This document shows positions 3,487 to 39,448 of a DNA stretch of 64,000 nt, in pieces. The notes beneath the pieces were generated by a model. The model worked only from the letters and a program-made list of their open reading frames with translations. It did no database searches and had not been told where the DNA came from. The translations under genes and the position numbers were made by a program. The stretch spans positions 408,616 to 472,615 of the forward strand of contig CAZWNZ010000001.1 in the NCBI GenBank assembly GCA_964635715.1, in the 5' to 3' direction. Position 1 is the stretch's first letter, and each line of letters begins with the position of its first letter. The DNA is from an uncultured Gammaproteobacteria bacterium. Its GTDB lineage: Bacteria; Patescibacteriota; Microgenomatia; UBA8517.

Positions 3487-3487
3487 A

Positions 3488-20057: not shown

Positions 20058-20726
20058 ATGAGAATTTTAATAATTGAAGATGAGCATAAAATTGCCAATT
20101 CTATCAAGCGCGGATTTGAGCAGGAAACCTGGGCTTGTGACGTCGCCTATGATGGGGAAGAGGGGTATGATTTGGCCAGCTCGGAGGACTATGACGTAAT
20201 AGTTTTGGATTTAATGCTTCCAAAAATGGATGGAATGGAGATTTGCAAAAAGCTTCGAATGGAAGATAAACACACTCCAATTTTAATGCTTACGGCAAGA
20301 GGTGAAATTACTGACCGTGTTGAGGGTTTAAATAGTGGGGCTGACGATTATCTTACTAAACCATTTGCCTTTGAGGAACTTCTGGCCAGAGTAAGGGCCT
20401 TAGTTCGAAGGCCAAAAGAAGTGCAAAGCGGTATATTATCAGTTGGAAATCTAACCTTAGATCCGGCAAATTTTGAAGTAAAGAATGGTGAAAAAAATAT
20501 CGAGTTGTCTAAAAAAGAATTTGCATTATTGGAATACTTGATGAGAAATTCAGGAAAAGTTGTTTCGAAAGATAATATTATTGCCCATGTTTGGGATTAT
20601 GAGGCAGATATTTTACCAAACACGGTAGAGGTTTTTATCGGCTACTTGCGTGACAAAATTGGCAATGATTATATTAAAACAGTAAGGGGTTTCGGATACA
20701 AAATATGTTTAAACGGGCACGATTAA
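20058..20726 (+). CDS. OmpR-family response regulator
   Basis: A receiver domain is present (DVIVLDLMLPKMDG). A winged-helix output domain is present. Confidence 0.9.
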   Translation: MRILIIEDEHKIANSIKRGFEQETWACDVAYDGEEGYDLASSEDYDVIVLDLMLPKMDGMEICKKLRMEDKHTPILMLTARGEITDRVEGLNSGADDYLTKPFAFEELLARVRALVRRPKEVQSGILSVGNLTLDPANFEVKNGEKNIELSKKEFALLEYLMRNSGKVVSKDNIIAHVWDYEADILPNTVEVFIGYLRDKIGNDYIKTVRGFGYKICLNGHD

Positions 20727-21724
20727 AATTAACAGCTTGGTATCTCCTTATTATTATGGTGATAAGTCTGAGCTTTTCTGTGGCAATCTATACGAGTGTA
20801 AATAGTGAATTGGTGCGTATTGATAGAGCTCAAAGTGAAAGACAGGCTAGGGTGGATTCTATGCAGGAATTCATTGCTCAAAAAGGATTTGCTCCTCCCC
20901 AGGGACCACAAATGCCGGAAAATATTACAATTGAACAAACGAGAGTAAAAATTATTACAATGTTGGGATTAATCAATATCTCAATATTAGTTTTGTCTGG
21001 TCTTGGCGGGTATTTTTTGGCCGGGCAAACCCTGGAACCGATTTCTAAAATGCTTGCCGAGCAGAAAAAGTTTGTCAGTAATGCCAGCCATGAGCTTAGA
21101 ACTCCATTGACTTCTCTCAAAACCGAAATAGAAGTTGGCTTAAGAGATAAGAAAATGACACTGGAGTCCGCACAAAAACTTCTCAAAAGCAATCTAGAAG
21201 ACGTAAACGGCATGGAAAAACTTTCGGATTACTTGCTGGATTTAAACAGGTATGAAAATATCGATATAAAATTAGAAACAAAAACAATTGAATTAGGTAC
21301 TCTCGTTATTTCTGCAATTGAAAATTGTGCAGCACTGGCTCACGAAAAAGGTGTCCAAATTTGTAAACACATTTCAAAAACGTATATTAAAAGCGATGAC
21401 CAGGCGACTCTCCAGTTGGCAATGATTTTGATAGATAATGCGATTAAATATTCCGGAAAATCAAAAAAGATTGATGTATATGTAAATAAAGATGGAGAAC
21501 TGGTTGTCAAAGATTATGGTATTGGGATTTCTGAAAAGGAAACTCCGTTCATTTTTGACAGGTTTTACAGGGCAGATATTTCCAGAACAAAACAGAAAGT
21601 AAAGGGTTATGGACTTGGTCTTTCTATAGCCAAATCAATTACCAACAAATTAGGTGCCAAGATTAAAGTTGAAAGTAAGATTGGAAAAGGAAGTACTTTC
21701 AGTGTGCAGTTCCCCACAGCATAA
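20705..21724 (+). CDS. Sensor histidine kinase
   Basis: Two TMs are present. The H-box SHELRTPL is present. N and G boxes are present (IDNAIKYSG, GYGLGLSIAK). The 5' end overlaps the regulator gene. Confidence 0.9.
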   Translation: MFKRARLKLTAWYLLIIMVISLSFSVAIYTSVNSELVRIDRAQSERQARVDSMQEFIAQKGFAPPQGPQMPENITIEQTRVKIITMLGLINISILVLSGLGGYFLAGQTLEPISKMLAEQKKFVSNASHELRTPLTSLKTEIEVGLRDKKMTLESAQKLLKSNLEDVNGMEKLSDYLLDLNRYENIDIKLETKTIELGTLVISAIENCAALAHEKGVQICKHISKTYIKSDDQATLQLAMILIDNAIKYSGKSKKIDVYVNKDGELVVKDYGIGISEKETPFIFDRFYRADISRTKQKVKGYGLGLSIAKSITNKLGAKIKVESKIGKGSTFSVQFPTA

Positions 21725-21975: not shown

Positions 21976-22097
21976 TTTTTTGAAATTGTTTTAGCAAATA
22001 CCGGAGCTCTAGCTCATCCCTAAAAAGATGACGTTATCTCCGGTTTTTTGTTGGGAAAAACTTGTTTTTGAACCGAATTTTGTTATATTACTGAATT

Positions 22098-22917: not shown

Positions 22918-22995
22918 TTGTGTTAAAATAGCCTCATGGGATTATCAGTTGGGATACTTATTTCACTGTCCCAACTTTTGATTTTAGATTCTTAG
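22918..22995 (+). pseudogene. ychF: Stranded ancestral ychF promoter plus first codons (ychF-prime) at attL
   Basis: The 21-nt TTGTGTTAAAATAGCCTCATG is identical to the folD promoter/start module. The ORF begins MGLSVGI, matching the YchF N-terminus MGxxxGIVGLPNVGKS. It diverges after codon 7 into a 20-codon ORF. Confidence 0.45.
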
Positions 22996-23061
22996 TCACC
23001 CTTCCTAAGGCTAATAAAGAGAGATTGATTCTTGAACGCAATCAACTAGGACAAATTATTC

Positions 23062-23655
23062 GTGCCGAAGTCCCAGGATTACCATATAAATATGCCCAGC
23101 AACAAAATTACTAAACAAAGGACAATCGAAGAAATCAGAGGTTCTCTAGAAAGCTCAGCTACTGGATACGATTCTACTTACATACTGAGAAAGGCTGACG
23201 AGGAAATATCAAAATGTAAAAAGGAACAACTGTATACTCCCGATACTGCTTATTACAAAGCAATGTCATTGTTCGAGTTTGATAAAGGAATTTTGTTACT
23301 CAATTCTCTACCAGACCTTCATGTAGTGTTTGCATTAGATTTTAATAAAAATCTTCAAAAAGAATATGATTGTAAAACACCATCTGAAAAGTCTTTAGCT
23401 GAAATAGTTACCCTCAACTTTATAAGAATATTGGAAACACAAAGAAAGATTAAAGATTGTCAAAAAAATGTTAGTACTAGATACGATATTCAATACATAA
23501 GCATATTAAGTAAGGAGTTAGATAGAGCTGAAAGACATTACCTGGCTTCACTGCAAGCCCTCAGGACGCTTAGAAACCCTTCTTTTGAAGTGAATATTAA
23601 AGCAAATAATGCTGTTGTAGGAAACAACCAAGCGGTGCAAGTTAAAAATGCTTAA
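23062..23655 (+). CDS. Hypothetical protein (element cargo)
   Basis: A 197-aa ORF with no recognised domain. Confidence 0.45.
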   Translation: MPKSQDYHINMPSNKITKQRTIEEIRGSLESSATGYDSTYILRKADEEISKCKKEQLYTPDTAYYKAMSLFEFDKGILLLNSLPDLHVVFALDFNKNLQKEYDCKTPSEKSLAEIVTLNFIRILETQRKIKDCQKNVSTRYDIQYISILSKELDRAERHYLASLQALRTLRNPSFEVNIKANNAVVGNNQAVQVKNA

Positions 23656-23683
23656 TGATTGTTAGCAATTTAGGTTAATTTAT

Positions 23684-24106
23684 ATGTTTAGCCTTCGATA
23701 CGGAAAAAGACCAGTAATAGAAGAATCTCAAAAGATTGGGGCGGGTGTATGTGTTAGAAACTTTTTGTTTGAAACGAAGAAGAAGTACAACCTTAACAGC
23801 GAAGTTGGCGTTAAGGATTTAATAGGTGATATGGAAATTGGAACAAATATCAATCTAAAACAGGATAACTATGGCAAAGTAGACTATTCAGAACCCAACA
23901 AGATCAAATTAACCTACTCAAAGTCTAATCTTAATAAGGGTTATATATTTTGGTTTATCTGTAACCTTTGCAGTAGGCGAGTGAAGTATCTATATTTCCC
24001 CCCAAACTCAACAGTTTTGGCTTGTAAGAACTGCCACAGGTTAGTCTATAATAAGCAGAATGAAAGTAAGAGATTCAGACCTTTCAGGAAGATGTTAGAG
24101 TTGTAA
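23684..24106 (+). CDS. Hypothetical protein with C-terminal CxxC...CxxC zinc ribbon
   Basis: The C-terminus carries CNLCSRR...CKNCHR. Confidence 0.45.
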   Translation: MFSLRYGKRPVIEESQKIGAGVCVRNFLFETKKKYNLNSEVGVKDLIGDMEIGTNINLKQDNYGKVDYSEPNKIKLTYSKSNLNKGYIFWFICNLCSRRVKYLYFPPNSTVLACKNCHRLVYNKQNESKRFRPFRKMLEL

Positions 24107-24115
24107 TTAAGCTAA

Positions 24116-24526
24116 ATGCAACGACATACCTTGAAGCCAATTCTGGTTTTCAAAGATTTTAATCTTCCTTCTGAACTTTGGGTTAATAAATCTGTAAATA
24201 TATACATAAATCACAAGGGAGAAATTTATTGTGACTACTTTGTTATTAAAGATTTTACAAGAACCGAGAACTTTAAACAGAAATACTGGTTTATAAAGCG
24301 GTATTTAGACAAAAAAAGAAAAGCCTATGATGTAACTGGTATTTATAACATAACAATTGGCGATTTGAGACAAATAATGTGGAGTAAGGACATCAAGTCA
24401 ATTTCAAGAAATAGAATAGAGGGAATCGTTCATAATGAGAACCAGATAGCAAATATAAAGGATGACACGATTCAGAGACTTAAGAAATATCTAGAAAAGA
24501 AATTATCGGAGAAAAGAAATGGCTAG
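24116..24526 (+). CDS. Hypothetical protein (136 aa)
   Basis: An ORF with no recognised domain. Confidence 0.4.
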   Translation: MQRHTLKPILVFKDFNLPSELWVNKSVNIYINHKGEIYCDYFVIKDFTRTENFKQKYWFIKRYLDKKRKAYDVTGIYNITIGDLRQIMWSKDIKSISRNRIEGIVHNENQIANIKDDTIQRLKKYLEKKLSEKRNG

Positions 24527-24575
24527 ATGGAGTTAGCCAACACCTCGACTCACTATTTATATTTTGGGTATATAA

Positions 24576-25439
24576 TTGAAGTTGATGGAAGAATCACCAA
24601 TTAAAAGGTTTTTTCGAGTGTTTTTGGTAATTCTTTACTGTGCTTCTTTCCTTTTTTCCGTTTTGATAGGTTTTAGCCTTCAATCTTTTTGGTTTTTTTT
24701 GATATTCTTCCTTATTAGCTGGTTGGTAATAGATATAGTTAACATTTCCACCAAGTACATTACCTCGGGAAAGACCTCAACAACAAAAAGCTGGATATAC
24801 CGAGGTTTCTTAATACTTTTTAACTACGACTCCTTTCTTGCACTTATAAAAAATGAACTTGATGAAGTAATGGCTGATTTTTATAGCGATTTCGTTGATA
24901 AGAAATTATCGGAGCTCATGAAAATCATTCCAAAGAACAAAATTGTCAATGTATTAAAAATGGATAAGGCAGCAAGTGAACAAGAGGAACAGGCTCTTTC
25001 AAAATTGGCAGAAATTTATAAACGAACCGGTAAAGATGAGAATTTTTTTGGCACCAAGGAAAGTTGGGAGTTGGACTTGGATACTCTCAAATCACAAAAT
25101 GAATACGCAAGACTCTCGAAACAAGCTAGGGGATTCCTAAACTTGACCTCGCCACTTATGGGTGATTTTGTTTTGTTAAATCATAAATTGGATAAGGGCA
25201 AGATAAGCCTGGAGAAAGTTTATTCCAAATTGCATAAGGAAAGTAAAAAAAGATACGACCAATTTTGTAAAGATTCTGTCAATTTTTCAGTATGGGTATC
25301 CTTGAGCAATGCTTTAATAAAAGCAAAAGAAAGTGGAGTCGCTTTTGACAAAGCCAAGATTAAGAACGAAGATATTAAGGAAGAGATACAAAGTTATCTA
25401 GCGGACCAGATTTCAACCGCAGAGTCTTTGGTAATTTAA
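24576..25439 (+). CDS. Hypothetical membrane protein (2 N-terminal TM + soluble domain)
   Basis: Hydrophobic N-terminal helices followed by a charged soluble region. Confidence 0.45.
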   Translation: MKLMEESPIKRFFRVFLVILYCASFLFSVLIGFSLQSFWFFLIFFLISWLVIDIVNISTKYITSGKTSTTKSWIYRGFLILFNYDSFLALIKNELDEVMADFYSDFVDKKLSELMKIIPKNKIVNVLKMDKAASEQEEQALSKLAEIYKRTGKDENFFGTKESWELDLDTLKSQNEYARLSKQARGFLNLTSPLMGDFVLLNHKLDKGKISLEKVYSKLHKESKKRYDQFCKDSVNFSVWVSLSNALIKAKESGVAFDKAKIKNEDIKEEIQSYLADQISTAESLVI

Positions 25440-25557
25440 GGTAAAGTTCTTCAGGTACTCACCAAAGATTCGGAATATTTTTGATGTATTTAATAAGAAG
25501 TAGTTCCACTCCACACCCTAACTCACTATATTTTATTTTGAGTTATAATTAACTATA

Positions 25558-26103
25558 GTGAAAAAGATACTTCTAATTCTGTTCATTTTGGTAGTAGTTA
25601 TCGCTGGGTTATTAGTTTATAAAAATATAACCTCAAACACACAAAATACAGAAATTACAGAAGAGCTAACGAAATGCGGACAGCAAATGGCTAATGAAAA
25701 TGGGAAAGGTGTGACAGATTATGAAGGAGTTGTGATACCCGTTGATTTTTCTTCAATGCCTGAGGCAAAACTTTTTTATACTAGGATTACTGAGACTGTG
25801 AAAGATGGTCCTAATTTCGCTAAACATTTTACCTTAGTCTCTTGGGGTTGTGGTACAGATTGTTTCGGATATTCGATTGTTGACACTAATACGGGGGCAA
25901 TAGTTGCTTATATTCCTTCTAATGAAGAGTATCATTTAAGATCAAGTTACAATTTAGACACTACTTATTTCGTTTTTGATCCCGTAAATGCAGGACAAGA
26001 AAGAAAATATTACAAAATGATTGAAGATGACAAAGGAAATGACCGATTGGAACTAGTATGTTCTGAAATCGCCAAAGAGGATATATATGGATTACCTGAA
26101 TAG
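25558..26103 (+). CDS. Secreted hypothetical protein
   Basis: An N-terminal signal/TM is present (MKKILLILFILVVVIAGLLV). Conserved Cys residues are present (WGCGTDCFGY). Confidence 0.45.
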   Translation: MKKILLILFILVVVIAGLLVYKNITSNTQNTEITEELTKCGQQMANENGKGVTDYEGVVIPVDFSSMPEAKLFYTRITETVKDGPNFAKHFTLVSWGCGTDCFGYSIVDTNTGAIVAYIPSNEEYHLRSSYNLDTTYFVFDPVNAGQERKYYKMIEDDKGNDRLELVCSEIAKEDIYGLPE

Positions 26104-26117
26104 TTTTATCTCCTAGA

Positions 26118-26321
26118 TTGGGGGTGATGTTTATGAAAAAAAGACTAACTCCGATACAACAAATTTTAGTAGGTATAGGTATTTACTTGTTGTCTTCAAT
26201 AATATCTTATCCAATCAACGCAGTATTTGAAGTTGTTGGAGCAATAGCATTTTTAAGCGGGTCAATAACATTAATAGTAAATTTTTTTAAGAAGAAAAAT
26301 AATAAAAAGTTATTGAATTGA
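26118..26321 (+). CDS. Small 2-TM membrane protein
   Basis: 67 aa with two hydrophobic helices and a basic tail. Confidence 0.35.
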   Translation: MGVMFMKKRLTPIQQILVGIGIYLLSSIISYPINAVFEVVGAIAFLSGSITLIVNFFKKKNNKKLLN

Positions 26322-26324
26322 AGT

Positions 26325-26552
26325 GTGGCAAGTTATAATATATGTATGACAATTATCCACGTTCGTATTCTGGGAATAGAGGGTAATTATCGTTTTTGGG
26401 TAAGCAGGGATCCATACGAGATAAATCCAACTCCATCATATGAATCCGAAAGTTTTTATGAAACCAAGAAGGAAGCTAAAGAGGCATTGGGTAGTTTTCT
26501 GAAAGACAAAAAAGAAGATTGGGGAAAGATTGATATTAGATGGTCTAAGTAG
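26325..26552 (+). CDS. Hypothetical small protein
   Basis: A 75-aa ORF. Its start lies 4 nt after the upstream stop. Confidence 0.3.
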   Translation: MASYNICMTIIHVRILGIEGNYRFWVSRDPYEINPTPSYESESFYETKKEAKEALGSFLKDKKEDWGKIDIRWSK

Positions 26553-26764
26553 ACAAGCTCCACTGCGACTCACGATACTTATATTAGATTTTCTTGTTAT
26601 TGCTTCTACTATCAATTTTTATAAGAAGTTCAAAATAATTTACTAAATTGTTGGCTACTTCTTGTGCTTCGGTATCTGAATAAACGACTCCATAGTCTTC
26701 ACGAAATATTTTTTGAAGGCTTTTGATTAGTTTTGGTTTGAAGCGCACAATTTATTTTGGCTAT

Positions 26765-27349
26765 TTAACTATATCCATATATCATCAGACCAACTATGAA
26801 CAGCACAGATATAACAGCAATAATATAAGCAAAAGTACTTGGTTTATCTGTTTGAACAACTACAGTATCGGCCTTTTTATCGTGAAAAGTTTGTTTTTCT
26901 TCATCTTTGCCCATATTCCAATAACCAATTCCAAAAAATAGGCCAGAAAGAATTTGTAGTAATGACCTCTTTAATGCTTGCCCACCTGACAGGTGAGACC
27001 TATCCTTTTTGTCCAATACAATAAGGTTTAACAAACTCTTGCCTGGTGTTCTAGACCAAGTTGAAAGAAAAAAAATACTATAGATGACATATCCAGTTGT
27101 AAATATTAAGCCGTAAGAATCATCTGACGGCTCTCCTTCAAATAACATCAGAATGATTATTAAAAGAATCAGCAGGATGGAGTAGTCAACACAATATGCA
27201 GCCAATCTAATCCAAAAACCAGCGTATGTTACGGCCTCTTTTTTATTTGGTAAATCTTTTTCTTCGTGGTTTTGGGAGAGCTTGTTACCACAGAAACGGC
27301 AGAACTTACTGTTGTCTGGTAACTCTTTCCCACAATATTTGCAAAACAT
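26765..27349 (-). CDS. Zinc-ribbon + RDD-family membrane protein
   Basis: The N-terminus is CKYCGKELPDNSKFCRFCGNKL. An RDD-like polytopic domain follows (RLAAYCVDYSILL..., RTPGKSL). Confidence 0.6.
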   Translation of the reverse strand: MFCKYCGKELPDNSKFCRFCGNKLSQNHEEKDLPNKKEAVTYAGFWIRLAAYCVDYSILLILLIIILMLFEGEPSDDSYGLIFTTGYVIYSIFFLSTWSRTPGKSLLNLIVLDKKDRSHLSGGQALKRSLLQILSGLFFGIGYWNMGKDEEKQTFHDKKADTVVVQTDKPSTFAYIIAVISVLFIVGLMIYGYS

Positions 27350-27354
27350 AATAA

Positions 27355-27732
27355 TTATTTCTTTCCTTCCTCTTTTTTAGATTCTTCCTCAGCTTTTTCT
27401 AAAAGAGACTCTGGATTCATTTTATACCAAAAACCTCTAATAAGTTTGTAAATCCCGTAAATCATTGCTCCCCATAACACATAGTATGTCCCACCTTCCG
27501 AAGCGAAGAGCCAACCTCCACCAGTTATTACTAATCCAATAACAAACCAAATAACACCTTGCTTCATTTCACCCTCTGCTAAAGCTTTAGCTTCTTCGAT
27601 AAGTGATTGTTTTTTATTCTTGAAATATCTATCAACTGAGCCTTCCTCTTCGTTTTTAGTCATCCCTTTTCCACATTTCGAGCAGAACTTTGCATCTGAA
27701 TCGTTGTTTTGACCACAATTAGTACATTCCAT
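27355..27732 (-). CDS. Zinc-ribbon protein with two TM helices
   Basis: The N-terminus is CTNCGQNNDSDAKFCSKCGKGM. Two hydrophobic helices follow. Confidence 0.55.
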   Translation of the reverse strand: MECTNCGQNNDSDAKFCSKCGKGMTKNEEEGSVDRYFKNKKQSLIEEAKALAEGEMKQGVIWFVIGLVITGGGWLFASEGGTYYVLWGAMIYGIYKLIRGFWYKMNPESLLEKAEEESKKEEGKK

Positions 27733-27734
27733 AT

Positions 27735-28394
27735 TTATTTCCTATACTTAGATTCTGTTATCCCACCTAAATAACCCCAAAATATAAGGATAAAAACATC
27801 GGTTTTAATGCGTTCGATTAGCTCGTTTGGCAAATCTTTCACGGAATCGGATGAATCTAGTATAGTATTTAACTCATATTCAAAGAATCTGTTCATCGAA
27901 TGTTCAAGGTCAGGTAAAAATTTTTTTTGATGCTCTTCGAATTTTTGGGCTATTAAAGATTGCCACTCTTTGATAAATGGCTCAAGTTCTATGTGCTTAG
28001 GAGTTTTCAAATCCTTATTTTTTAGTAAAGCCTCAGCCATCCAGAACCAATAACCTCCACTAGCACACCATCCATAAACATTTTTTAACGTTTCTATTAC
28101 TTTATAGGGTTGTTTATTTAGCGAGTCCTTATTGTCTTGAATAAAATTCTCAAACTGGTTTGTAGAGATTCTTTTTATCAGTTCCCAAACTTCATTAGAA
28201 GATAAGTCTTCGTAGACTTTTCGCTCATCACCTGTAGAATCGTATATCTCAGCAAATTTATCCCAAAGGTCCACATTCTTTTTTGGAGCAGAAGTATCTT
28301 TTTTTGTTTTAACCTCTTTATTCACTTGCTCACCACAATAACAACAAAATTTACTATCAGGGTCTATCTGTTTATGACAATTATTACAGTCCAT
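27735..28394 (-). CDS. Zinc-ribbon protein, cytoplasmic alpha-helical domain
   Basis: The N-terminus is CNNCHKQIDPDSKFCCYCGEQV. No TM is predicted. Confidence 0.5.
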   Translation of the reverse strand: MDCNNCHKQIDPDSKFCCYCGEQVNKEVKTKKDTSAPKKNVDLWDKFAEIYDSTGDERKVYEDLSSNEVWELIKRISTNQFENFIQDNKDSLNKQPYKVIETLKNVYGWCASGGYWFWMAEALLKNKDLKTPKHIELEPFIKEWQSLIAQKFEEHQKKFLPDLEHSMNRFFEYELNTILDSSDSVKDLPNELIERIKTDVFILIFWGYLGGITESKYRK

Positions 28395-28989
28395 AATCTG
28401 CTCCTTCTATTTCCCAAACCCACCAATAGTCACCCTGTGGGTAAAAGGTTAGGGGAACCTCAAAACTAAATGCTCCATTAGATACAGCTCCGCTTTCAAT
28501 GATGGTGTTTCTGGTGTCAAAATGCTTTTTTAAGGCTTCATCGTAGTAAAAATCAAGTCTTACCTTTACATTCCGAGCAGCTTTTGAATAGGTGTTTTTA
28601 AGTATTCCTGTAAAGTAACTTTCTCCAGCATCGTCGTACAGAATTTCATAATCCGTTATAGTTAAGTAGCTTATGGGGAAGTTTGTTGGCTCAGAGACTG
28701 ATTGCTCGCTTGTAATGTTTTCATCGGTCGGTATTGCGGCAAGTATAAGTATTCCCACAAAACCCAGCCCCCCCAACACCAAAACACCGATAATTATATT
28801 TTTAAGGGAAACACCTTTCTTCTTAGGTTTGAAAATTATATCGTCAAGGTCTTCAATTTGCTCGTGTAAAGTTTTAGCTTCGCTTTTTTCGGATGCTCCA
28901 CTTTTTTTAGAAAGATCATAACCACAGTTCTGGCAATATTTACTTTTTTCTAAATTACTATAATCGCAATCGGGACATTTTGTCTTCAT
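28384..28989 (-). CDS. Zinc-ribbon, single-TM protein with extracytoplasmic domain
   Basis: The N-terminus is CPDCDYSNLEKSKYCQNCGYDL. A TM follows (IIIGVLVLGGLGFVGILILAAI), then a ~110-aa C-terminal domain. Confidence 0.55.
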   Translation of the reverse strand: MKTKCPDCDYSNLEKSKYCQNCGYDLSKKSGASEKSEAKTLHEQIEDLDDIIFKPKKKGVSLKNIIIGVLVLGGLGFVGILILAAIPTDENITSEQSVSEPTNFPISYLTITDYEILYDDAGESYFTGILKNTYSKAARNVKVRLDFYYDEALKKHFDTRNTIIESGAVSNGAFSFEVPLTFYPQGDYWWVWEIEGADYGL

Positions 28990-28992
28990 AAT

Positions 28993-29760
28993 TTATTTTA
29001 CACCAAAACTTTCTCGCCAAAAACCTATAAGATTTCTAATTCTATTTGTTGTTAGGGGGTGATCTCCCAACAACTCACTAAACTTAACAGAAGTTCTGTT
29101 TGCTGTTTTTATTTGTGATACATATCCCTTAATATCTAGTTTTTCATAGAGAACTTTCCCTATGGATATTTTTATGAGTGCTGAAATTGCACTATCCACA
29201 TCTTTTGTCGCAATCAAACCGCATCTGTCACAGGAGTATTCAGTTTTCCTATTCCAAAATCCAAAAATTAAATTACTTAAGAAATTGTTGCTTCCGATCG
29301 GTACTAATAGGGTAGAAATTTTTGTATGGCCTGCTTTGTAATGTCCCAACTCGTGCCCAATAACAAAATTTAACTCCTTTTGATTTAATTGTTCTACTAA
29401 CGCAGATGTTAGAACAACGGTGCAACTTGTAATGCCGAGTGTGTACGCTTGAAGGTATGGGTCTTGAATGATGTATAGTGAGGCCCTGTTTATTCCAAGT
29501 TTTTCAGCGTTAGTCCTAAAAGTATCGTAAATATCAGGATATTGTTTTGAATGAACTCTAATGGCATTTCCCAAATATTGTGATTGTTGAAGGTGAACAT
29601 AGATTAGGGCGCCTATCAAAAGCAGAACAAAAATATAGATATTAAATGTATAAAGAAAATAACTTATTAGAGAAATAATCAACAAGGTCACTATCAAAGC
29701 GATATTTTCGTAAGGAACACGAAACATCCAAGATTCTATTGTTGTTTTTCTATCTTCCAT
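28993..29760 (-). CDS. M48-family zinc metallopeptidase (HtpX-like), membrane-anchored
   Basis: Two N-terminal TMs are present. An HExxH motif is present (VIGHELGHYKAGH). A downstream E/D and the C-terminal GDHP...RI are typical of M48. Confidence 0.7.
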   Translation of the reverse strand: MEDRKTTIESWMFRVPYENIALIVTLLIISLISYFLYTFNIYIFVLLLIGALIYVHLQQSQYLGNAIRVHSKQYPDIYDTFRTNAEKLGINRASLYIIQDPYLQAYTLGITSCTVVLTSALVEQLNQKELNFVIGHELGHYKAGHTKISTLLVPIGSNNFLSNLIFGFWNRKTEYSCDRCGLIATKDVDSAISALIKISIGKVLYEKLDIKGYVSQIKTANRTSVKFSELLGDHPLTTNRIRNLIGFWRESFGVK

Positions 29761-29959
29761 CTTGCTTTTTAGTATTAGAGTCCTTTCTGGAAAACATTTT
29801 GTAAACCAGATAAGGGAAAAATATAAAAGATGTAAAAGTTAATAAGGTAAATAGAGGTGGCCTTTCGATACCAAAAAAGACAAAGACAAGGGTACCCAGT
29901 GCCCAAAGGACAAACGAGAGAAAAACCCCTATTATTATAGAACCTATGACTTTAATCAT
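29750..29959 (-). CDS. Small 2-TM membrane protein
   Basis: 69 aa and hydrophobic. Overlaps the M48 gene start. Confidence 0.4.
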   Translation of the reverse strand: MIKVIGSIIIGVFLSFVLWALGTLVFVFFGIERPPLFTLLTFTSFIFFPYLVYKMFSRKDSNTKKQDGR

Positions 29960-29960
29960 A

Positions 29961-30263
29961 TTAACTTTTTCTTTCTTTTATTGAATAAGCTGATATAAAA
30001 AATAAGACTGCCGAGATTAAATCTATTCCAACCCAAGAACTCTTATTCATATAAACAGGAATCAGGGGATTGAAAAGAAAGGCTAGGGCACCAAAGATAA
30101 GCACCCAACCTGTTAACTTTGATTTTGAGAACCCAATTGCGTTAAAAATTGCTACTCCGCAAACAACCCATCTGAGGATTATGTAATAGTCGTATGGCCA
30201 AATGTTTAATATTCCCAAGAGCAGAAGGACCCCAGAAATAATTGAAGGCCATTTAATATTCAT
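29961..30263 (-). CDS. Small 3-4 TM membrane protein (first gene of minus-strand cargo operon)
   Basis: 100 aa and hydrophobic. Confidence 0.45.
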   Translation of the reverse strand: MNIKWPSIISGVLLLLGILNIWPYDYYIILRWVVCGVAIFNAIGFSKSKLTGWVLIFGALAFLFNPLIPVYMNKSSWVGIDLISAVLFFISAYSIKERKS

Positions 30264-30399
30264 ATTACATATTTATAAACTGCGAACTAGCCAAATTTTA
30301 CACCCTTTTATTAGAAAAATCTAAGAAATTCGAAATCATTAGTGGTAAAATACAAATATAAACTGCCCGTGATAAACGGGTTTTTTTTGTAAATGTAAT

Positions 30400-31530
30400 A
30401 TGTCAAAGAAAGATGAAGAGATATTGTTGGCTGATGAACTCAGGAAACGGATAGATAATCTTAAGATAATTGATAAGCCTAGTCCATTTTTTAGGGAGGT
30501 TGCACGAACGGCTGAATGGATGGGTGAGATATTGTTATTTGAGCAACCACTTTTTGCCCTAGACCTTCAAAGTAAAAAGCGAGATAAAGAATCATTGCAG
30601 ATATTGAAGGATATGCACTCCAAAGGCAGAGTCATTTGGTCTGCTATAAAAAAAATACCAATTACTCTTGAAAAGACACGGCCAGAAGTTCAACAATCGC
30701 TTGCGAGTTTGCATCAGTATTACGAAATGCCACACCCTCAGTACGGAATCGGGCTATATCACAGTTTGAGGATAGTGGTTGAGTATCTTATTTCTAGTAA
30801 CAATTCAAAAGGGCTTGAGAAATTTGTAGACAGGAATAACCCCGTTAAGTATCCGAATTTTCGAGGTGAAATGTATGATCTACTAATTGCTTACAATAAG
30901 AAACAGGATTTAATAAAAAAAGAACTCGCCCTTAGTCTTTGGGGTGCTTGGGACAATCTTAAGTATGTAAGCTACCTTGCAGGAATAGATAACGACTATC
31001 CACAACTTGAAGATTGGGCTAAGGTTTTTACAAAGGATGAATACTTTGTACATCTTCACAAAGTATCAGATTACTTATTTGATTGGCTGGTGTTAGGTAA
31101 AAAAGGTGACAAATTAAGTGGTGACCCACTGCTCGAATCTGCTGTTTGGGATAAGAAATTTAATTTTGAAATTGACCCTAACACCGAAATTGATAATGCA
31201 AATTTTGGACAGTATGGAGTAGTTAGGTTTTACCCAGGTAAATCTCCAACTAAAGTGGAAGGTGATAGTAAACTAAACGCAAATCAATTATTTCTTAAAA
31301 AATTGTTTGAAGCTGGCGAGAAAGGTGTATCTAGAAAAGAGCTGGCCGAGTATATGGATATAAGAGAGAATGACATTAAAGCCTATGTTAACGGGGCCGA
31401 TAAAGTTTTTCGAAATAGTTACAAAAAACAAAAAGTTAAAGCAAATATTTACGTATCTGCAGATAGCGAGATAATTAGGTTGATTGTTATACCTGTCGAA
31501 AGTGAGAATAATCAAAATACCGAAGCTTAG
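30400..31530 (+). CDS. Hypothetical protein with C-terminal winged-helix-like region
   Basis: 376 aa. The C-terminus is LFLKKLFEAGEKGVSRKELAEYMDIREND. Confidence 0.45.
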   Translation: MSKKDEEILLADELRKRIDNLKIIDKPSPFFREVARTAEWMGEILLFEQPLFALDLQSKKRDKESLQILKDMHSKGRVIWSAIKKIPITLEKTRPEVQQSLASLHQYYEMPHPQYGIGLYHSLRIVVEYLISSNNSKGLEKFVDRNNPVKYPNFRGEMYDLLIAYNKKQDLIKKELALSLWGAWDNLKYVSYLAGIDNDYPQLEDWAKVFTKDEYFVHLHKVSDYLFDWLVLGKKGDKLSGDPLLESAVWDKKFNFEIDPNTEIDNANFGQYGVVRFYPGKSPTKVEGDSKLNANQLFLKKLFEAGEKGVSRKELAEYMDIRENDIKAYVNGADKVFRNSYKKQKVKANIYVSADSEIIRLIVIPVESENNQNTEA

Positions 31531-31566
31531 CTAATCTTCTTTTTATCTTATAACTAATCTTCTCGC

Positions 31567-31839
31567 TTGTTTTATGCTTCAGGCAAGATGTTAAATGTTA
31601 ATGAAGATAGATGGAAGAGCAAAGATTTTTATTTGAGTTGCGTTATTCGTGCCTCTGGGTTTGAACTCATAACCCTTGAAAGGAAAGAACACGACTTCAG
31701 CGTTTTTGTTTTTGACATTTCTCCTCAAAAGGCAGAAGAAATAATTTCTCTTCACTGGTCTAAACAGTTGAAACTTCCCACCAAGGATTTAGTTGAAGCA
31801 ATCAATGAATTAAGAACAAGGTTAAAAAGTGGAGTCTAA
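31567..31839 (+). CDS. Hypothetical small protein
   Basis: A 90-aa ORF. Confidence 0.35.
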   Translation: MFYASGKMLNVNEDRWKSKDFYLSCVIRASGFELITLERKEHDFSVFVFDISPQKAEEIISLHWSKQLKLPTKDLVEAINELRTRLKSGV

Positions 31840-32038
31840 TATGGAAAATTTAAATGTTATCGAAAAAGCATTGGAACTTTATGACGAAGTCGACAATTTG
31901 GCTAAGGACTGGCTAATAAAAAGTTGGAAACTAAAGGACGAGGATAAGGAGATTGCAAGATTGTATTACCAAAAGGCTTGTAAAAAGCGATTAGAACTAG
32001 CGAAAAGATTGGAGGGATTATGCAACCAGACAAAATAA
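31829..32038 (+). CDS. Hypothetical small protein
   Basis: A 69-aa helical ORF that overlaps its neighbours. Confidence 0.3.
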   Translation: MESNMENLNVIEKALELYDEVDNLAKDWLIKSWKLKDEDKEIARLYYQKACKKRLELAKRLEGLCNQTK

Positions 32039-33351
32039 CATTTGATCCAGCAAAAGATATTAAGGATTCGATTTATGAGATTACTAAAGTTGAAAAAGAA
32101 TGGGAAGAAATAACCTCGGAAGACATACTAAAAGTATTAGGTCAGACAATAAAGAAAGATGATTTTAATAAACTCCTAGTCTTTCTGTGCCAGCTTTTAG
32201 CATATTCGGAAAGTAGTCAGATAAATCTTTCTTTTAATGCTCCAAGCAGTAGTGGCAAAAGCTATTTGGCTTTGGAAATCGCAGACTTATTTCCCAAAGA
32301 AGATGTCCTTAAACTTGGTTATGCTAGCCCGACTTCCTTTTTCCATACAACCAGCGAATATTCCAAAGAAAAGAATGGCTATGTAGTGAATCTTGAAAGG
32401 AAAATTGTGGTTTTTCTTGATATGCCACACTCATTACTTTTACAGCATTTAAGACCGCTTCTAAGCCATGATGAAAAGGAAATATTAGTTAAGATTACTG
32501 ACAAATCAGCCAAGGGGGGAATAAGAACAAAAGACATTTTTATTAGAGGTTATCCTGCAGTTCTTTTTTGTTCGGCAAACTTTAACTTAGATGAACAAGA
32601 GTTAACAAGGTTCATCCTTCTTAGCCCAGAAACCAACCAAGAAAAGATAAGAGAAGCAATTTACGAGCGGGTAAAAAAGGAAGCAGATAAAGAAGGGTAT
32701 TTTAAACTCTTAAACGAAAACCCAGACAGACAAGCCTTGAAACAGAGAATTGTTGATGTCAGAGATTCTCTTGTTAGTAAAATTGATTTAGGTAACCCAG
32801 AAAAATTACTTCAGATGTTCTATGAACGCAATGAGATTCTTAAACCTAGACATTCAAGGGACATTCAACGAATCGCTTCCTTGGCCAAGGCATTTGCCTT
32901 ACTTAACCTTTGGACCCGAGAAAGAGTGGGGGATGCAATTAAGACAAATGAAAAGGACCTTGAAAATGCTTTTAAGATTTGGGACGAGATAAGTATTGCA
33001 CAAGATTTAGGGGTTTCTCCTTATATTCTTAATCTCTACAAAGAAGTTATTGTCCCCGTTTATGAAGAAAAAGGTAAAGCAGGACTAACCAGACAGGAGG
33101 TTTTGAAAAAACATTTTGAGGTTTATGGAAGACATATAGCCGATTGGCAGTTGAGGCAAGAAATAGTGCCAATAATGAAGACTTCTGGACTTATTTCTGA
33201 AGAACAGGACCCGCTTGATAAAAGAAAACTTCTTATTTACCCCCTAGTACAGCTCACTACATCTGGAGCTCAAGAAATAGTGAGTGAGAGGGGGGAGGAG
33301 GGTGTAACAGAAGCTCAAATCGAGGATATTTTTGGAGTAAAACCTATATGA
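32020..33351 (+). CDS. P-loop NTPase, possible primase/helicase-like replication protein
   Basis: A Walker A-like NAPSSSGKSYLALEIADL is present. Walker B-like VVFLDM is present. The C-terminal winged-helix region resembles the phage/plasmid primase C-terminal NTPase. Confidence 0.45.
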   Translation: MQPDKITFDPAKDIKDSIYEITKVEKEWEEITSEDILKVLGQTIKKDDFNKLLVFLCQLLAYSESSQINLSFNAPSSSGKSYLALEIADLFPKEDVLKLGYASPTSFFHTTSEYSKEKNGYVVNLERKIVVFLDMPHSLLLQHLRPLLSHDEKEILVKITDKSAKGGIRTKDIFIRGYPAVLFCSANFNLDEQELTRFILLSPETNQEKIREAIYERVKKEADKEGYFKLLNENPDRQALKQRIVDVRDSLVSKIDLGNPEKLLQMFYERNEILKPRHSRDIQRIASLAKAFALLNLWTRERVGDAIKTNEKDLENAFKIWDEISIAQDLGVSPYILNLYKEVIVPVYEEKGKAGLTRQEVLKKHFEVYGRHIADWQLRQEIVPIMKTSGLISEEQDPLDKRKLLIYPLVQLTTSGAQEIVSERGEEGVTEAQIEDIFGVKPI

Positions 33352-33678: not shown

Positions 33679-35327
33679 AAAGCGATAATCAAATACAGGA
33701 ACCGATGAATGTTGCTCTTTATGCAAGGGTTTCAACTGGTAGGCAGGAGAATGAACAGACCATTGAATCCCAATTAGATGAAGTTAAGAGAAAAATAGCG
33801 GATGATGGTAATACTTTATTACCTCAAAACATCTTTATAGACGATGGATGGAGCGGAGAACTTCTAGCAAGGCCTTCACTTGATAACTTAAGGGATGCAG
33901 TTAAAGATAATAGTTTTGAAGCAGTTTATGTTTATGATAGAGGTAGGCTTTCCAGGACCTTCTTTCACCAGGAGCTTGTTATAAGTGAACTAAGCGATTT
34001 AGGAATCCAATTTATTTCACTTCATGATGTTAAAGCCACAACTCCTGAGGAGAAAGTCTTGCAATCAATGCAGGGGGTATTCCACGAATACGAAAGAATT
34101 AAGATTGCAGAGAGAATGAGAAGGGGAAAAATGTATCACGCAAAGGAAGGGAAAATAATAAATGGTCAGGCTTTGTATGGTTACTCTTATAAGAAAAGGG
34201 AGGATGGAAATGTAGACTACCTTATAAACGATGACGAGGCGGGAGTAGTAAGAAAGATTTGGAATTGGTTTGGAAATGATAATCTAGCCGTTCATACAAT
34301 CCAGAGGAGATTATTTGACCTTAAAATTATGCCCCAGAAGGGTAAATCTGATTTTTGGTCCAAAAGTGTTATTACCAGACTTCTTAAACAGGAAACCTAT
34401 GTGACAGGTAAGGCTTTTTATAATAAATCGGAAGCGGTTGTAGCCAAACACCCGATGAACAATGGTAAGTATAAGAAAGTTAAGAAAAGTAGTAGGAAAG
34501 TAAAGTCTCGTGAAGACTGGATTCCTTTTGATGTCCCCAGAATAATTACAGATTATTCACTTTATGAGAAGGTTCAAAAGAAACTTGAATATAACAGAGT
34601 CTATGCAAACAAAAAATCTAAATACGACTACCTACTTTCTGGTTTAATTTATTGTGGTTGTGGGAACAAAAGAGTTGGGGACGGTTGCAGCAAAAACGGG
34701 CACTTTTATTACAGGTGCATTGATAGGATTAGAAGCGGGGTATACGAGAGGAAATGCAAATCAAGTGGTATAAACGCTGCGATTTTGGATGGTCTGCTCT
34801 GGAAAGAACTAAGAAAAAAGCTTTTTAGTTACCCAATAATGAAGAAATATGCCGAAAAGTGGATTAAATCAGTATCGGTTTTAAGTAGTGAAGACTTGCT
34901 TGAGAAGCGAAGACTTAATGAAATGATAGTAAAGACTACAGAAGAAGAAAATCGTTATTCAAAGGCTTACGGAGTTGGAACTTTAGAATTCGACCAATTC
35001 CAGAATTTAATGAAAGACGCCAAAAAGCGAAGAGTTTCTTATCAAAAACAATTATCAGAATTGGCCAATAAATCGGCAGAAGTTAATGTTCAGATAGAGG
35101 TCGATGAGCTATTAGCGGAAGTGATGAGTGTGGTTAAGGATATAGATTTTAGTGATAAATTTAGGGTAATTCGAGATATAATAGACAAAGTTATCGTAAC
35201 AGAAAGGAGCGGTGCAGAAATATGTGCGCATTTACCATTACCAGTCACAATCACCGAAAAGTTGGGATATGAGCCTGAGCGTAGGGATTGTTGGCTTGCC
35301 AAATGTAGGCAAGAGCACTCTTTTTAA
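33675..35327 (+). CDS. Large serine recombinase (serine integrase)
   Basis: The N-terminal resolvase catalytic domain is VALYARVSTGRQENEQTIESQ. A recombinase domain and a zinc-ribbon domain follow (CGCGNKRVGDGC...YYRC). It has a coiled-coil C-terminus. The 3' end spans attR and overlaps ychF by 59 nt. Confidence 0.85.
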   Translation: MKSDNQIQEPMNVALYARVSTGRQENEQTIESQLDEVKRKIADDGNTLLPQNIFIDDGWSGELLARPSLDNLRDAVKDNSFEAVYVYDRGRLSRTFFHQELVISELSDLGIQFISLHDVKATTPEEKVLQSMQGVFHEYERIKIAERMRRGKMYHAKEGKIINGQALYGYSYKKREDGNVDYLINDDEAGVVRKIWNWFGNDNLAVHTIQRRLFDLKIMPQKGKSDFWSKSVITRLLKQETYVTGKAFYNKSEAVVAKHPMNNGKYKKVKKSSRKVKSREDWIPFDVPRIITDYSLYEKVQKKLEYNRVYANKKSKYDYLLSGLIYCGCGNKRVGDGCSKNGHFYYRCIDRIRSGVYERKCKSSGINAAILDGLLWKELRKKLFSYPIMKKYAEKWIKSVSVLSSEDLLEKRRLNEMIVKTTEEENRYSKAYGVGTLEFDQFQNLMKDAKKRRVSYQKQLSELANKSAEVNVQIEVDELLAEVMSVVKDIDFSDKFRVIRDIIDKVIVTERSGAEICAHLPLPVTITEKLGYEPERRDCWLAKCRQEHSF

Positions 35328-36372
35328 TGCGCTTCTAAAAAAGCAACAGGCTTATGTCGCAAACTTCCCGTTCGCGACGATTGAACCGAATATTGGAATA
35401 GTTCCGGTTCCTGACCCACGCTTGGCCAAGCTCGCAGACGTAGTAAAGAGCTCAGATAATCTTGACCATTTTCCACCGGAAGTCCCGGCTACCGTTCAGT
35501 TTGTAGATATCGCAGGGCTTATCGCTGGTGCTTCAAAAGGCGAGGGATTGGGGAATAAATTCCTAAGTCACATAAGAGAAACAAACGCAATTTGCTACGT
35601 TTTGCGAGCTTTTACCGATCCGGATGTTGTTCGCCAGGGTGTGAAAGAACCGGTTGCTGATTTCGAAGTTCTGGAAACCGAGCTTGCCCTTGCCGATCTT
35701 CAAACTTTGGAAAAACAGAAAGATCCGGGGAATACTCCGGATAAAGATCAGATAAAAAAGTGGCAAACTATCCAGAGATTAAAAAAGACATTAGAAGGCA
35801 GTACCATGGTTCGAACTATCGAACTGTCAGAAGAGGAAAATAAAATAGTTAATGAGTTGGGACTTTTAACGGCAAAACCAATACTTGTTGTGTTAAATGT
35901 TGACGAAAAGCAAGTAGCTAGTAGTCAGAATCTAGAATCTAGTTTTGCGAAGGAAATTGGGGTCGCTGAAAATCAGGTGATAGCCATCTGTGCCAAAACA
36001 GAAAGCGAGCTTTCAGAACTTTCAGAAGATGATCAGAAAATTTACATGCAGGACTTGGGAATTGACAAGTCCGGTCTTGAGAGACTAATTCAGAAAGCTT
36101 TTACAACTCTTGGCCTTGCCACATTTTTAACGGCAGGAGAAAAGGAAGTCAGAGCATGGACTATTCAAGCGGGCATTAACGCTCAGGAGGCGGCTGGGGT
36201 GATTCACACTGATTTTATTAAAAAATTTATCAAAGCCGACGTAGTCAGATTTGAGGAGTTCATTAAATCTGGCGGCTGGAAAGCCGCCCGTGAATTAGGT
36301 AAAGTTCGTTCCGAGGGCCGCGACTACATAATGCAAGATGGGGAAGTTGTGGAATTCAAGATTGGGGCGTAA
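35269..36372 (+). CDS. ychF: Ribosome-binding ATPase YchF (Obg family)
   Basis: MSLSVGIVGLPNVGKSTLFNAL is present. A TGS domain is present. The C-terminal YchF domain is present. The first 5-6 codons are supplied by the element. Confidence 0.9.
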   Translation: MSLSVGIVGLPNVGKSTLFNALLKKQQAYVANFPFATIEPNIGIVPVPDPRLAKLADVVKSSDNLDHFPPEVPATVQFVDIAGLIAGASKGEGLGNKFLSHIRETNAICYVLRAFTDPDVVRQGVKEPVADFEVLETELALADLQTLEKQKDPGNTPDKDQIKKWQTIQRLKKTLEGSTMVRTIELSEEENKIVNELGLLTAKPILVVLNVDEKQVASSQNLESSFAKEIGVAENQVIAICAKTESELSELSEDDQKIYMQDLGIDKSGLERLIQKAFTTLGLATFLTAGEKEVRAWTIQAGINAQEAAGVIHTDFIKKFIKADVVRFEEFIKSGGWKAARELGKVRSEGRDYIMQDGEVVEFKIGA

Positions 36373-37520: not shown

Positions 37521-38753
37521 ATGTCAAGAAGAATTAATTTCGTTAAAGCCAGAAAAATTGTCTTGTCGGCACTTGTTTTGGCAGGCGTTTTTGTCGGTGG
37601 ATATTACCTCGGTATCAACGGCTATAAAGTAGAAGTTAACAAGGCTTTGACAGTAACAATCAACAGACGAACCCCCGACGATAAAAATGTTGACATGAGT
37701 CTTTTTTGGCAAGTTTGGGATCTTATTAGCGAAAAATACTACGACAAATCAAAACTTGTTCCTTCGCAGATGATTTATGGAGCAATTGAAGGAATGGTAT
37801 CTTCGGTCGGTGATCCTTACACAACATTTCTTATTCCTTCACAGAACAAAGTAGTTAACGAGGATTTAAATGGATCATTCGGCGGAGTCGGTATAGAAAT
37901 TGGTTATAAAGACGGTTACTTGGCAGTAATAGCACCGCTTCCCGGGACACCGGCAGACAGAGCCGGGGTTAAAGCCGGGGACTATATTGTAAAAATTACA
38001 GACACAATAAAAGGTGTTGATCTGGACAGTTCTACTATTAGCACAAACGAAGCTGTAACCTACATCAGGGGTGTTGCGGGAACAAAAGTCACATTAACAC
38101 TTATGAGAGATGGTGTAGACGAACCGATTGTGGTTGATCTTGTTAGGGAGAAGATAGATGTTCCTTCGGTTACGTTATCTTGGGTAGGTGAAGGTTCGGA
38201 TGTGGCAAATATTGAAATAAGTAAATTTGGATCAGAAACAAAGGGCGAGTGGGATAGTGTTGTGAGCGAAATATTAAGTAACGAAAACGTTAAAGGAATA
38301 ATTATTGATCTTAGAAACAATCCTGGAGGATATATGCAGGCAGCAATAGATTTAGCTTCTGACTTTGTTTTGAATGGAACAACAATAGTAATTCAGGATA
38401 GTGGCAACAATGATAAAGAAGAATACAAGTCAATGACTTTACCTCGGCTTGAAGACTATCAAACAGTGGTATTAATCAATGAAGGCAGCGCTTCAGCATC
38501 TGAAATTCTGGCAGGTGCATTAAGAGATCAGGTAGGAATAAAATTAGTAGGTGATAAAAGTTTTGGCAAGGGAACAATTCAGGAACCAGTTGATATGGTC
38601 GGAGGGAGCGGGGTACACATAACTACTGCCAAATGGCTGACACCCAAAGGGACGTGGGTTCATGATTCAGGGTTAGTTCCCGATCTGGAAATTGCCAACC
38701 CGGACGATACTGAGGTAGATGAGCAGCTGGAAGCTGCGATTGAACTTTTTTAA
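37521..38753 (+). CDS. Carboxyl-terminal processing protease (S41 family) with PDZ domain
   Basis: An N-terminal TM is present. A PDZ domain is present ([11 protein letters not shown]). The S41 motifs [10 protein letters not shown] and [13 protein letters not shown] are present. Confidence 0.85.
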
Positions 38754-39448
38754 GAAGAAATATTTTTGGTAAGTTCGATTATACGGTCAAGATCTCCATC
38801 AACTATTACTTCAAGCTTCCCCCAGCTTTTGCCAATTCTGTGATCGGTAACCCTGTCTTGAGGAAAATTGTAAGTGCGGATTTTTTCGGATCTCATTCCA
38901 CGGCCGATTACACTTCTGTATCCGGCCATTGTTTTTTCTTTCTCGGCTTCCTGACGCTCCCAAAGGCGTGATCTCAAGAGAGAGAGGGCTATTTGTCTGT
39001 TTTGTTCCTGGAAGCGTTCCTCGCGGGCTTCTACGACGATACCGGTGGGTTTATGAACAAGTCTCACGGCAGTGGAAACTTTATTAACATTTTGGCCTCC
39101 GTGGCCTCCAGCCCGGGTAAATTGCCATTCCAAATCATTTTGGTTGATTTGGATTTCATCTTCTTTAACTTCCGGTAAAACTACAATAGTAGCAGTGGAA
39201 GTGTGTATTCTGCCTCTTTTTTCAGTAACCGGAACCCTTTGGACTCGGTGAACTCCCGACTCGTTTTTTAGAAGATCAAAAACTTGTGGGCCGGATATCC
39301 TGATTGTTTTTTCATCGATCAAAGCAACTTTCAAGTTTTTCTTTGTAGCATAGCGGATATACATACGTAGGAGATCGGATCCCCAAAGTTTGGCTTCATC
39401 ACCACCCGTGGCACCACGAATTTCAATAAACGCTGTTTGATTATCCAT
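38750..39448 (-). CDS. prfA: Peptide chain release factor 1-like, lacking N-terminal domain 1
   Basis: A PVT tripeptide (RF1 type) is present, then [14 protein letters not shown]. The GGQ motif is present ([19 protein letters not shown]). It starts at the position equivalent to E. coli RF1 residue ~112. There is an in-frame stop 21 nt upstream. Confidence 0.8.

Follow-up and report, generated by a model that had tools for sequence, protein, structure and literature searches.

We report that a compact cluster of seven genes at positions 26765-30263, on the minus strand of a 64-kb stretch of DNA (hereafter the window; 64,000 nucleotides of contig CAZWNZ010000001.1, assembly GCA_964635715.1), is an expanded, mobile-element-borne copy of a module conserved in bacteria of the Candidate Phyla Radiation (CPR; Patescibacteria), and that the grouping of its genes is not due to chance. 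Judged from its gene content in related loci, the core of this module is probably a triad formed by a divergent, HtpX-like M48 metalloprotease, a bitopic partner protein (g4) that is translationally coupled to it, and a polytopic protein of the RDD or DUF805 family that bears a zinc ribbon (ZnR). To this triad the cluster in the window adds a DUF6804 protein, a peptide with two transmembrane (TM) segments, a protein combining a zinc ribbon with two TM segments (g6), and a protein combining a zinc ribbon with a helical domain (g5). The synteny is solid and new, and in the literature searched we found no description of an M48/zinc-ribbon module, while its function, be it envelope sensing or defence, is put forward here as a proposal.

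The open reading frame (ORF) listing of the window verifies the seven minus-strand genes of the cluster, which are referred to as g1 to g7:

29961-30263, minus strand: g1, 100 aa, small polytopic membrane protein of the DUF6804 family with about four TM segments
29750-29959, minus strand: g2, 69 aa, two TM segments
28993-29760, minus strand: g3, 255 aa, Peptidase_M48 with the motif HELGH and an N-terminal TM hairpin
28384-28989, minus strand: g4, 201 aa, zinc ribbon, disordered linker, juxtamembrane motif, one TM segment, and an immunoglobulin (Ig)-like beta-sandwich ectodomain
27735-28394, minus strand: g5, 219 aa, zinc ribbon and cytoplasmic all-helical domain
27355-27732, minus strand: g6, 125 aa, zinc ribbon and two-TM hairpin
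26765-27349, minus strand: g7, 194 aa, zinc ribbon and RDD-family polytopic domain

The first-pass annotation of this DNA, a reading of the sequence without database searches, had described seven packed, co-directional genes on the minus strand with the M48 protease as the sole recognisable enzyme, and both statements are borne out by the present analysis, with all ORFs found at the coordinates it gave. The junctions between consecutive genes, in order from g1 to g7, measure +1, -11, +3, -11, +2, and +5 nt, and these short junctions and overlaps indicate that the cluster is a tightly coupled operon. Some details of the earlier description needed correction. The gene overlaps, given as 4-10 nt, are in fact two overlaps of 11 nt (g2/g3 and g4/g5), the other junctions being gaps of 1, 3, 2, and 5 nt, and the tiny membrane proteins that lack a ribbon, counted as three, are only two (g1 and g2). 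A motif of the form CxxC-x8-16-CxxC occurs in 5 of the 88 genes called in the window; four of these are consecutive genes of the cluster, which places the arrangement beyond chance, and the fifth (14986-15600) carries the motif internally.

Close relatives of the g3 protease are rare and patchy, amounting to 139 clusters among 5.8e9 proteins, and those with a name are nearly all patescibacterial (Woese-, Gottesman-, Collier-, and Shapirobacteria). Three public metagenome-assembled genomes with M48 relatives carry the labels Gammaproteobacteria or Pseudomonadales, which are unverified, and the module appears to be restricted to Patescibacteria. The gene following the M48 gene is g4-like in 16 independent related loci. 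This holds for every locus with an M48 identity of at least 42%, the two genes overlapping by up to 29 nt or lying up to 12 nt apart. The g4-like partners share the ribbon (absent only in locus L104), the motif [D/E]D[V/I][I/L]FxP, one TM segment, and an ectodomain. A ribbon-bearing RDD or DUF805 protein then follows in nearly all related loci, in the position equivalent to that of g7. Genes for g5, g6, and DUF6804 are present in a subset of the loci and the gene order is variable, the order in L103, for example, being DUF6804-g5-g6-M48-g4-ZnR/DUF805. The check that had been suggested, whether M48 and zinc-ribbon genes stay together in CPR genomes, thus gave a positive result.

Zinc-ribbon ORFs account for 40 of the 80 co-directional operon neighbours in 15 loci, compared with 6 of the 272 other genes (odds ratio 44, p=5e-24). 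In a control set of 46 loci whose M48 proteins are only distantly related (22-35% identity), a class that makes up the bulk of the metagenome scan matches, no such enrichment was seen (3/242 vs 4/476). Besides, parts of the module were found fused in single proteins, namely an M48 protease with a C-terminal zinc ribbon (P0120), a protein combining DUF6804, a zinc ribbon, and g5 (P0213), and a six-TM protein with a C-terminal zinc ribbon in L013. The operon of L099 is 84-94% identical to that of the window, yet its g4 ectodomain differs and is weakly PsbP_2-like, as are those of L001 and L013. The g4 ectodomain, a beta-sandwich in one case and PsbP_2-like in the other, is exchanged between operons that are otherwise much alike.

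The membership of g3 in the M48 family is evident from its match to Pfam PF01435 (80.8 bits vs a cutoff of 20.3, E=1.5e-22) and from the residues H136, E137, and H140 of the HExxH motif and E174 and D178 of the ExxxD motif, all of which are invariant in 18 homologues. The protein is not a sensor protease of the BlaR1/M56 type, as its match to Pfam PF05569 (M56) of 26.4 bits is below the cutoff of 31 (E=5e-6 over residues 41-179) and the chain of 255 residues carries no additional domain at its end; the blaR1_generic and MecR1 models also match g3 in the NCBIfam scan. Nor is it an HtpX orthologue, all eight NCBIfam HtpX models falling far under their cutoffs of 245-422 and the best of them, NF003425, reaching 61.4 bits vs a cutoff of 355. 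The closest relatives of g3 in the PDB are an HtpX fragment or Ste24. We conclude that g3 is a predicted zinc metalloprotease that is divergent and a genuine M48 member, and is neither an HtpX orthologue nor BlaR1. Counts of lysine and arginine residues, following the positive-inside rule, put its catalytic domain on the cytoplasmic side, in agreement with the topology of HtpX, and the active site is predicted to face the cytoplasm.

The N-terminal ribbons of g4, g5, g6, and g7 have the same spacing, C-x2-C-x10-C-x2-C, the central spacer being x10 in all four proteins and not x11-12 as previously counted. Against the PF13240 cutoff of 25 bits, g7 scores 32.8, g6 29.1, g4 23.1, and g5 18.0; the four-Cys motif is intact in all of them, and zinc binding is predicted. 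The C-terminal modules of the four proteins differ, as the first-pass annotation had stated, and the AlphaFold2 (AF2) models of g4 and g5 agree with this. On the other hand, their description as paralogues holds for the ribbon domain only, each ribbon subtype being kept among its own orthologues from one locus to the next. The possibility that the ribbons of a locus evolve in concert was considered and rejected, the sequences of each subtype being nearer to those of orthologues elsewhere than to those of their neighbours.

The AF2 model of g4 comprises the ribbon, a low-confidence linker (residues 30-61), a TM helix (62-84), and a confident six-strand beta-sandwich (105-200), for which a structure search returned generic Ig-like domains only (Z at most 7.3). 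Residues D50, I52, F53, and P55 of the juxtamembrane motif DDIIFKPKKK are invariant across homologues, and the motif falls in a segment that AF2 models as disordered (predicted confidence score, pLDDT, <50); motifs for docking or cleavage usually show this combination of invariance and disorder. Lysine and arginine counts place the ribbon and the motif of g4 in the cytoplasm and the sandwich outside, and the other ribbons are likewise on the cytoplasmic side.

The AF2 model of g5 is all-helical and has no TM segment. A profile search of 1.84 billion representatives recovered only about 45 full-length relatives, all alike in size and architecture, the remaining matches being to the ribbon only, so that g5 represents a small orphan family. 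Neither the PDB nor a set of predicted viral structures contains a match to its confidently modelled domain. The g7 protein is a member of the RDD family (PF06271, 72.5 bits vs a cutoff of 24.1, E=5.7e-20, profile positions 1-136 of 137), and orthologues of g6 were detected in L099, L101, L001, L003 (where the ribbon is lost), and L103. The g1 protein belongs to DUF6804 (PF20619, 79 bits vs a cutoff of 27, E=3e-22) and has orthologues upstream of M48 in L099, L101, L007/L008, L013, L103, and L019. A Pfam scan gave no family match for g2, whose orthologues (65 aa, 72-78% identity) are present in L099 and L101 only.

Integrative or replicative elements carry the module in the window, L099, L101, L001, L003, L013, L104, L105, and L106, the mobile share being about 9 of 16 loci, including primase-polymerase (Prim-Pol) elements in L001 and L106 and loci with serine recombinase neighbours (L003, L013, L104, and L105). 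Copies in a core-like context were found in L103, L107/L108, L109, L009, and L010. In L103, ruvABC/comM-like genes lie on one side and purA, dnaG, and a sigma70 gene on the other, whereas in L107 (1109-7652) and L108, both from Collierbacteria, a triad of M48, g4, and ZnR/RDD genes starts 21 nt downstream of a run of prfB, ftsE, ftsX, and an M23-like gene, in the same direction, with VanZ and tsaE downstream of the triad. The latter context may indicate a connection with the control of the cell wall or of division. The cluster had been described as the cargo of a mobile element, and since core-like copies exist, with the minimal triad also in such regions, this label fits the island in the window but not the family as a whole.

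This island, of about 13 kb, lies between a two-component system (20058-21724) and ychF, and contains or is bordered by the following features besides the cluster:

22068-22087 (plus strand) and 35381-35400: candidate boundary repeat, TTGAACCGAATTTTGTTATA and TTGAACCGAAT(T/A)TTG, matching at 17 of 20 positions with an exact run of 11
23062-24106, plus strand: two element genes (197 and 140 aa) with 57-69% identity to L099 and L101 by tblastn and a blastn match of 22949-24092 to L101
30264-30399, no strand: divergent intergenic region of 136 bp between the cluster and the replication-side genes of the element
30400-33351, plus strand: element backbone genes encoding 376, 90, 69, and 443 aa
33675-35327, plus strand: large serine recombinase (Resolvase 7.6e-28, Recombinase 2e-10, Zn_ribbon_recom 2.7e-9) at the right island edge

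The 3' end of the recombinase gene overlaps the start of ychF (35269-36372, with MSLSVGIVGLPNVGKS at 35269) by about 59 nt, so that the island either borders on the 5' end of this core GTPase gene or has rebuilt it. The 443-aa protein (32020-33351) is a P-loop NTPase similar to those of superfamily 3 (SF3). It shares 52% identity with the product of a gene that is placed in the same divergent manner in L099, and its Walker-A region can be aligned with the helicase portion of the Prim-Pol protein of L001 (E=4e-6). The 90-aa backbone protein is common to L101, L105, and L001. In L099 and L101 the genes for the 197-aa and 140-aa proteins are conserved beside the cluster, from which it follows that the left part of the island begins at about 22.9 kb or earlier. 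Considering the recombinase domains at its edge, the P-loop protein, and the genes that it has in common with L099, L101, and L105, the island is an integrative element. At the element edge of L099, in the place of the recombinase in the window, 1.6 kb (3070-4713) contain no called gene, and tblastn detected no recombinase homologue there.

The left copy of the candidate boundary repeat lies just before the first island gene, and the right copy follows the recombinase inside ychF, where it encodes the conserved IEPNIG of YchF. This direct repeat, which is weak and of chance-level length, may be the core of an attachment (att) site or a chance match; a search for att sites did not establish any, and no ychF remnant was found at the left side of the island. 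Between the cluster and the 197-aa and 140-aa genes, a block of about 2.6 kb (24116-26748) holds ORFs of 136, 287, 181, 67, 75, and 54 aa with no family matches, and this block looks like an island-specific insertion. In L099 and L101, g7 is followed by a further g4-like gene (190 aa), which the island in the window lacks. A scan for promoters and terminators gave no enrichment over shuffled sequences, and the promoter that we place in the intergenic region (30264-30399) is therefore proposed from position only. A GC-rich hairpin (30365-30381, GCCCGTGATAAACGGGT followed by a T-run) is present just upstream of the 376-aa element gene. The Rfam search revealed no regulatory RNA, tRNA-Leu being the only match.

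Elsewhere in the window, a 232-aa release-factor-like protein with a partial PCRF domain, an RF-1/GGQ domain, and no N-terminal domain is encoded at 38750-39448, adjoining the gene for ribosomal protein L31 (39539-39868). A further gene (40968-41852) encodes a 294-aa protein with a HisRS-like class II core and no Pfam match for an anticodon-binding domain, which may be HisZ-like or truncated.

Based on these observations, we tentatively favour a reading in which the module would act as a sensor-gated, cytoplasm-facing proteolytic complex with a role in envelope homeostasis or resistance. The M48 protease, g4, and the ribbon-bearing partners would form a single membrane complex, in which the g4 ectodomain would report an envelope or surface signal. 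This signal would expose the juxtamembrane motif of g4, and possibly also the linkers of the other ribbon proteins, to the M48 site or withdraw it from there, the motif [D/E]D[V/I][I/L]FxP(K/R) serving as a docking or cleavage site for the protease. The RDD or DUF805 partner might modulate the protease as SppI does SppA, and the output would be regulated proteolysis on the inner side of the membrane, in support of envelope homeostasis or resistance, with enlarged versions of the module carried by mobile elements as accessory cargo. The reading is supported by the invariant M48 residues, the obligate pairing of M48 and g4, the enrichment of zinc-ribbon genes, the fusions, the location of the motif on the same side as the protease, and the modular ectodomain, as well as by the existence of core-like contexts, including the run after ftsE-ftsX and the M23-like gene.

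Several known systems share features with the module. In Bacillus subtilis, the RDD protein SppI (YteJ) binds and inhibits the adjacently encoded membrane protease SppA (PMC7568657). As in that pair, the operon described here combines a membrane protease with an RDD polytopic protein, the operonic pairing alone being what is seen in the module; SppA, however, is an S49 serine protease and not an M48 protease, and SppA-SppI includes no bitopic sensor-like partner. The active site of SppA faces the outside, and SppI is not known to have an N-terminal zinc ribbon. An intramembrane binding site that faces the cytoplasm has been reported for RDD (PMC12419801). Similarity to HtpX (M48B) lies in the M48 fold, the HExxH motif with a downstream Glu, and the N-terminal TM hairpin followed by a cytoplasmic catalytic domain, whereas g3 differs in its length of about 255 aa, its sub-cutoff scores, its dedicated ribbon-tagged partners, its rarity, and its frequent mobility.

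BlaR1 and MecR1 (M56) are membrane-embedded gluzincins related to M48 that couple an extracellular sensor to cytoplasmic cleavage, and some loci of the module have an adjacent helix-turn-helix (HTH) gene; on the other hand, the ectodomain of the module is on a separate protein, g4, is a beta-sandwich or PsbP-like rather than similar to a penicillin-binding protein, and is not accompanied by a BlaI-type repressor. The architecture of g4 (N-terminal zinc ribbon, one TM segment, and extracellular domain) is also that of TcaA, and the NCBIfam model teico_TcaA weakly matches the ribbon and adjoining N-terminus of g4, g6, and g7 (E=4e-4 to 9e-4, 18-19 bits vs a cutoff of 550), but the ectodomain of TcaA is unrelated to that of g4. 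To our knowledge, TcaA has no protease partner. CapP/CapH and ImmA/ImmR likewise combine a metalloprotease and an HTH gene on mobile elements, but these proteases are soluble, of the M78 type, and cleave a repressor, whereas the module consists of a membrane M48 protease with membrane partners, and has no HTH gene in the window.

Some points weigh against the sensor-gated reading. Every mechanistic step in it is derived from synteny, fusions, and topology. The fusion of M48 to a zinc ribbon is better suited to a ribbon that acts as a shared docking module than to one that is a substrate tag, and the ribbon proteins may thus be either substrates or regulators. N-terminal PF13240 ribbons on membrane proteins are very common without an M48 neighbour, and the role of the ribbon may be generic. 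Finally, the module is patchily distributed, about 9 of 16 loci have it on mobile elements, and defence genes occur next to it, all of which suits a role in conflict at least equally well.

Such a role, in defence against phages or other mobile genetic elements (MGEs) or in superinfection exclusion, is an unlikely but serious possibility in our judgement. The swappable ectodomain would sense an attack on the cell surface and activate M48, and the protease would then release or activate ribbon-tagged effectors (RDD, DUF805, and two-TM proteins) that block entry or collapse the membrane in the manner of abortive infection. The cluster had been said to resemble a membrane signalling, exclusion, or defence module while matching no named system. 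The second statement is confirmed by PADLOC-DB 2.0, in which none of the seven proteins was assigned to a system: g1, g2, g5, g6, and g7 gave no matches, and only faint matches occurred among the cluster, to CapP on the HExxH segment of g3 (19 residues, E=0.0055) and to LmuB (E=0.079). Scans against PHROGs and NCBIfam likewise gave no system-level match for the seven proteins.

A role in defence or exclusion is supported by association only, through the neighbourhood of the related loci, where PADLOC-positive genes adjoin the module in 5 of about 16 loci, a count that has no matched control and is no more than suggestive. These are a UG19 defence-associated reverse transcriptase (RT_UG19, 1e-57) in L001 (5585-7708), a retron-type reverse transcriptase (1e-85) in L005 (5546-6421), PDC-M02A (2e-19; of the PDC-M02A/B type) in L104 (5178-6865), PDC-S18 (2e-94) in L003 (5771-6670), and PDC-S50 (4e-8) in L013. 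In L106, an uncharacterised 613-aa protein instead occupies the place between DUF5659 and M48 in the same Prim-Pol element, and the slot beside M48 may be a variable cargo position. In the island of the window, by contrast, no defence match was found among the six genes scanned, the recombinase and the small ORFs of two stretches (26118-26748 and 31567-32038) being outside this set.

The immediate vicinity of known or candidate defence genes, the mobile carriage of the module, its variable gene content with a swapped ectodomain, and its rare and patchy occurrence (139 clusters in 5.8e9 proteins) thus all favour defence. They are opposed by the absence of any PADLOC match in the cluster beyond the 19-residue CapP segment, by the negative scan of the window island, and by the core-like copies in L103, L107/L108, and L109, which have no MGE or defence genes nearby, and the co-location, in a small sample with no matched control, may reflect shared variable regions only. 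An M48 profile scan of viral contigs gave only two distant and partial M48 matches (30-46% identity); the viral contigs are thus without the module, which is therefore not a phage module. The boldest form of this explanation, to which we give a rather low probability, is that the module represents a new class of membrane conflict system in CPR bacteria, in which a swappable surface sensor would gate M48, and M48 would process zinc-ribbon-tagged membrane effectors leading to the exclusion of phage or foreign DNA or to abortive infection. If true, this would be a case in immunity of a logic of protease plus tagged substrate, like that of the sortase/exosortase systems.

A switch like BlaR1/BlaI, in which an ectodomain-gated M48/M56-like protease cleaves a DNA-binding regulator and thereby controls excision or replication of the element, seems improbable to us. 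It is in line with the weak M56 similarity and the blaR1_generic and MecR1 matches of g3, with the divergent orientation of the cluster relative to the replication genes of the element, and with a gene for a 60-64-aa HTH_17/MerR protein that in L001 and L003 directly adjoins the start of the M48 gene, without any gap, and in L019 is the first of the operon. However, the operon has no HTH gene in the window, L099, or L101, the M56 score of 26.4 stays under the cutoff of 31 with no BlaI-type winged-helix repressor present, and the copies in core contexts have neither an HTH gene nor an element; such a switch would also leave unexplained why up to five ribbon-tagged membrane proteins are retained. 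Ordinary housekeeping, with an HtpX-type quality-control protease beside functionally unrelated small membrane proteins, is disfavoured and has, in our view, a similarly slight chance of being correct: the best named relatives are HtpX models, together with the HtpX fragment or Ste24 in the PDB, ZnR-RDD and ZnR-DUF805 are common architectures elsewhere, and some loci are core-like, but the synteny persists at M48 identities as low as 42%, the junctions being coupled or overlapping, zinc-ribbon genes are enriched (p=5e-24), two independent fusions (P0120 and P0213) join the parts, the HtpX equivalog score is 61 bits vs 245-422, and the M48 family is rare and often mobile and thus no universal housekeeping gene.

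The CPR bacteria, or Patescibacteria, are tiny episymbionts whose envelope and mobile-element biology is almost unknown. The module described here gives a testable hypothesis for the common membrane proteins with N-terminal zinc ribbons, as well as for the RDD and DUF805 families, and represents a candidate envelope-sensing or defence function borne by the mobile elements of these organisms.

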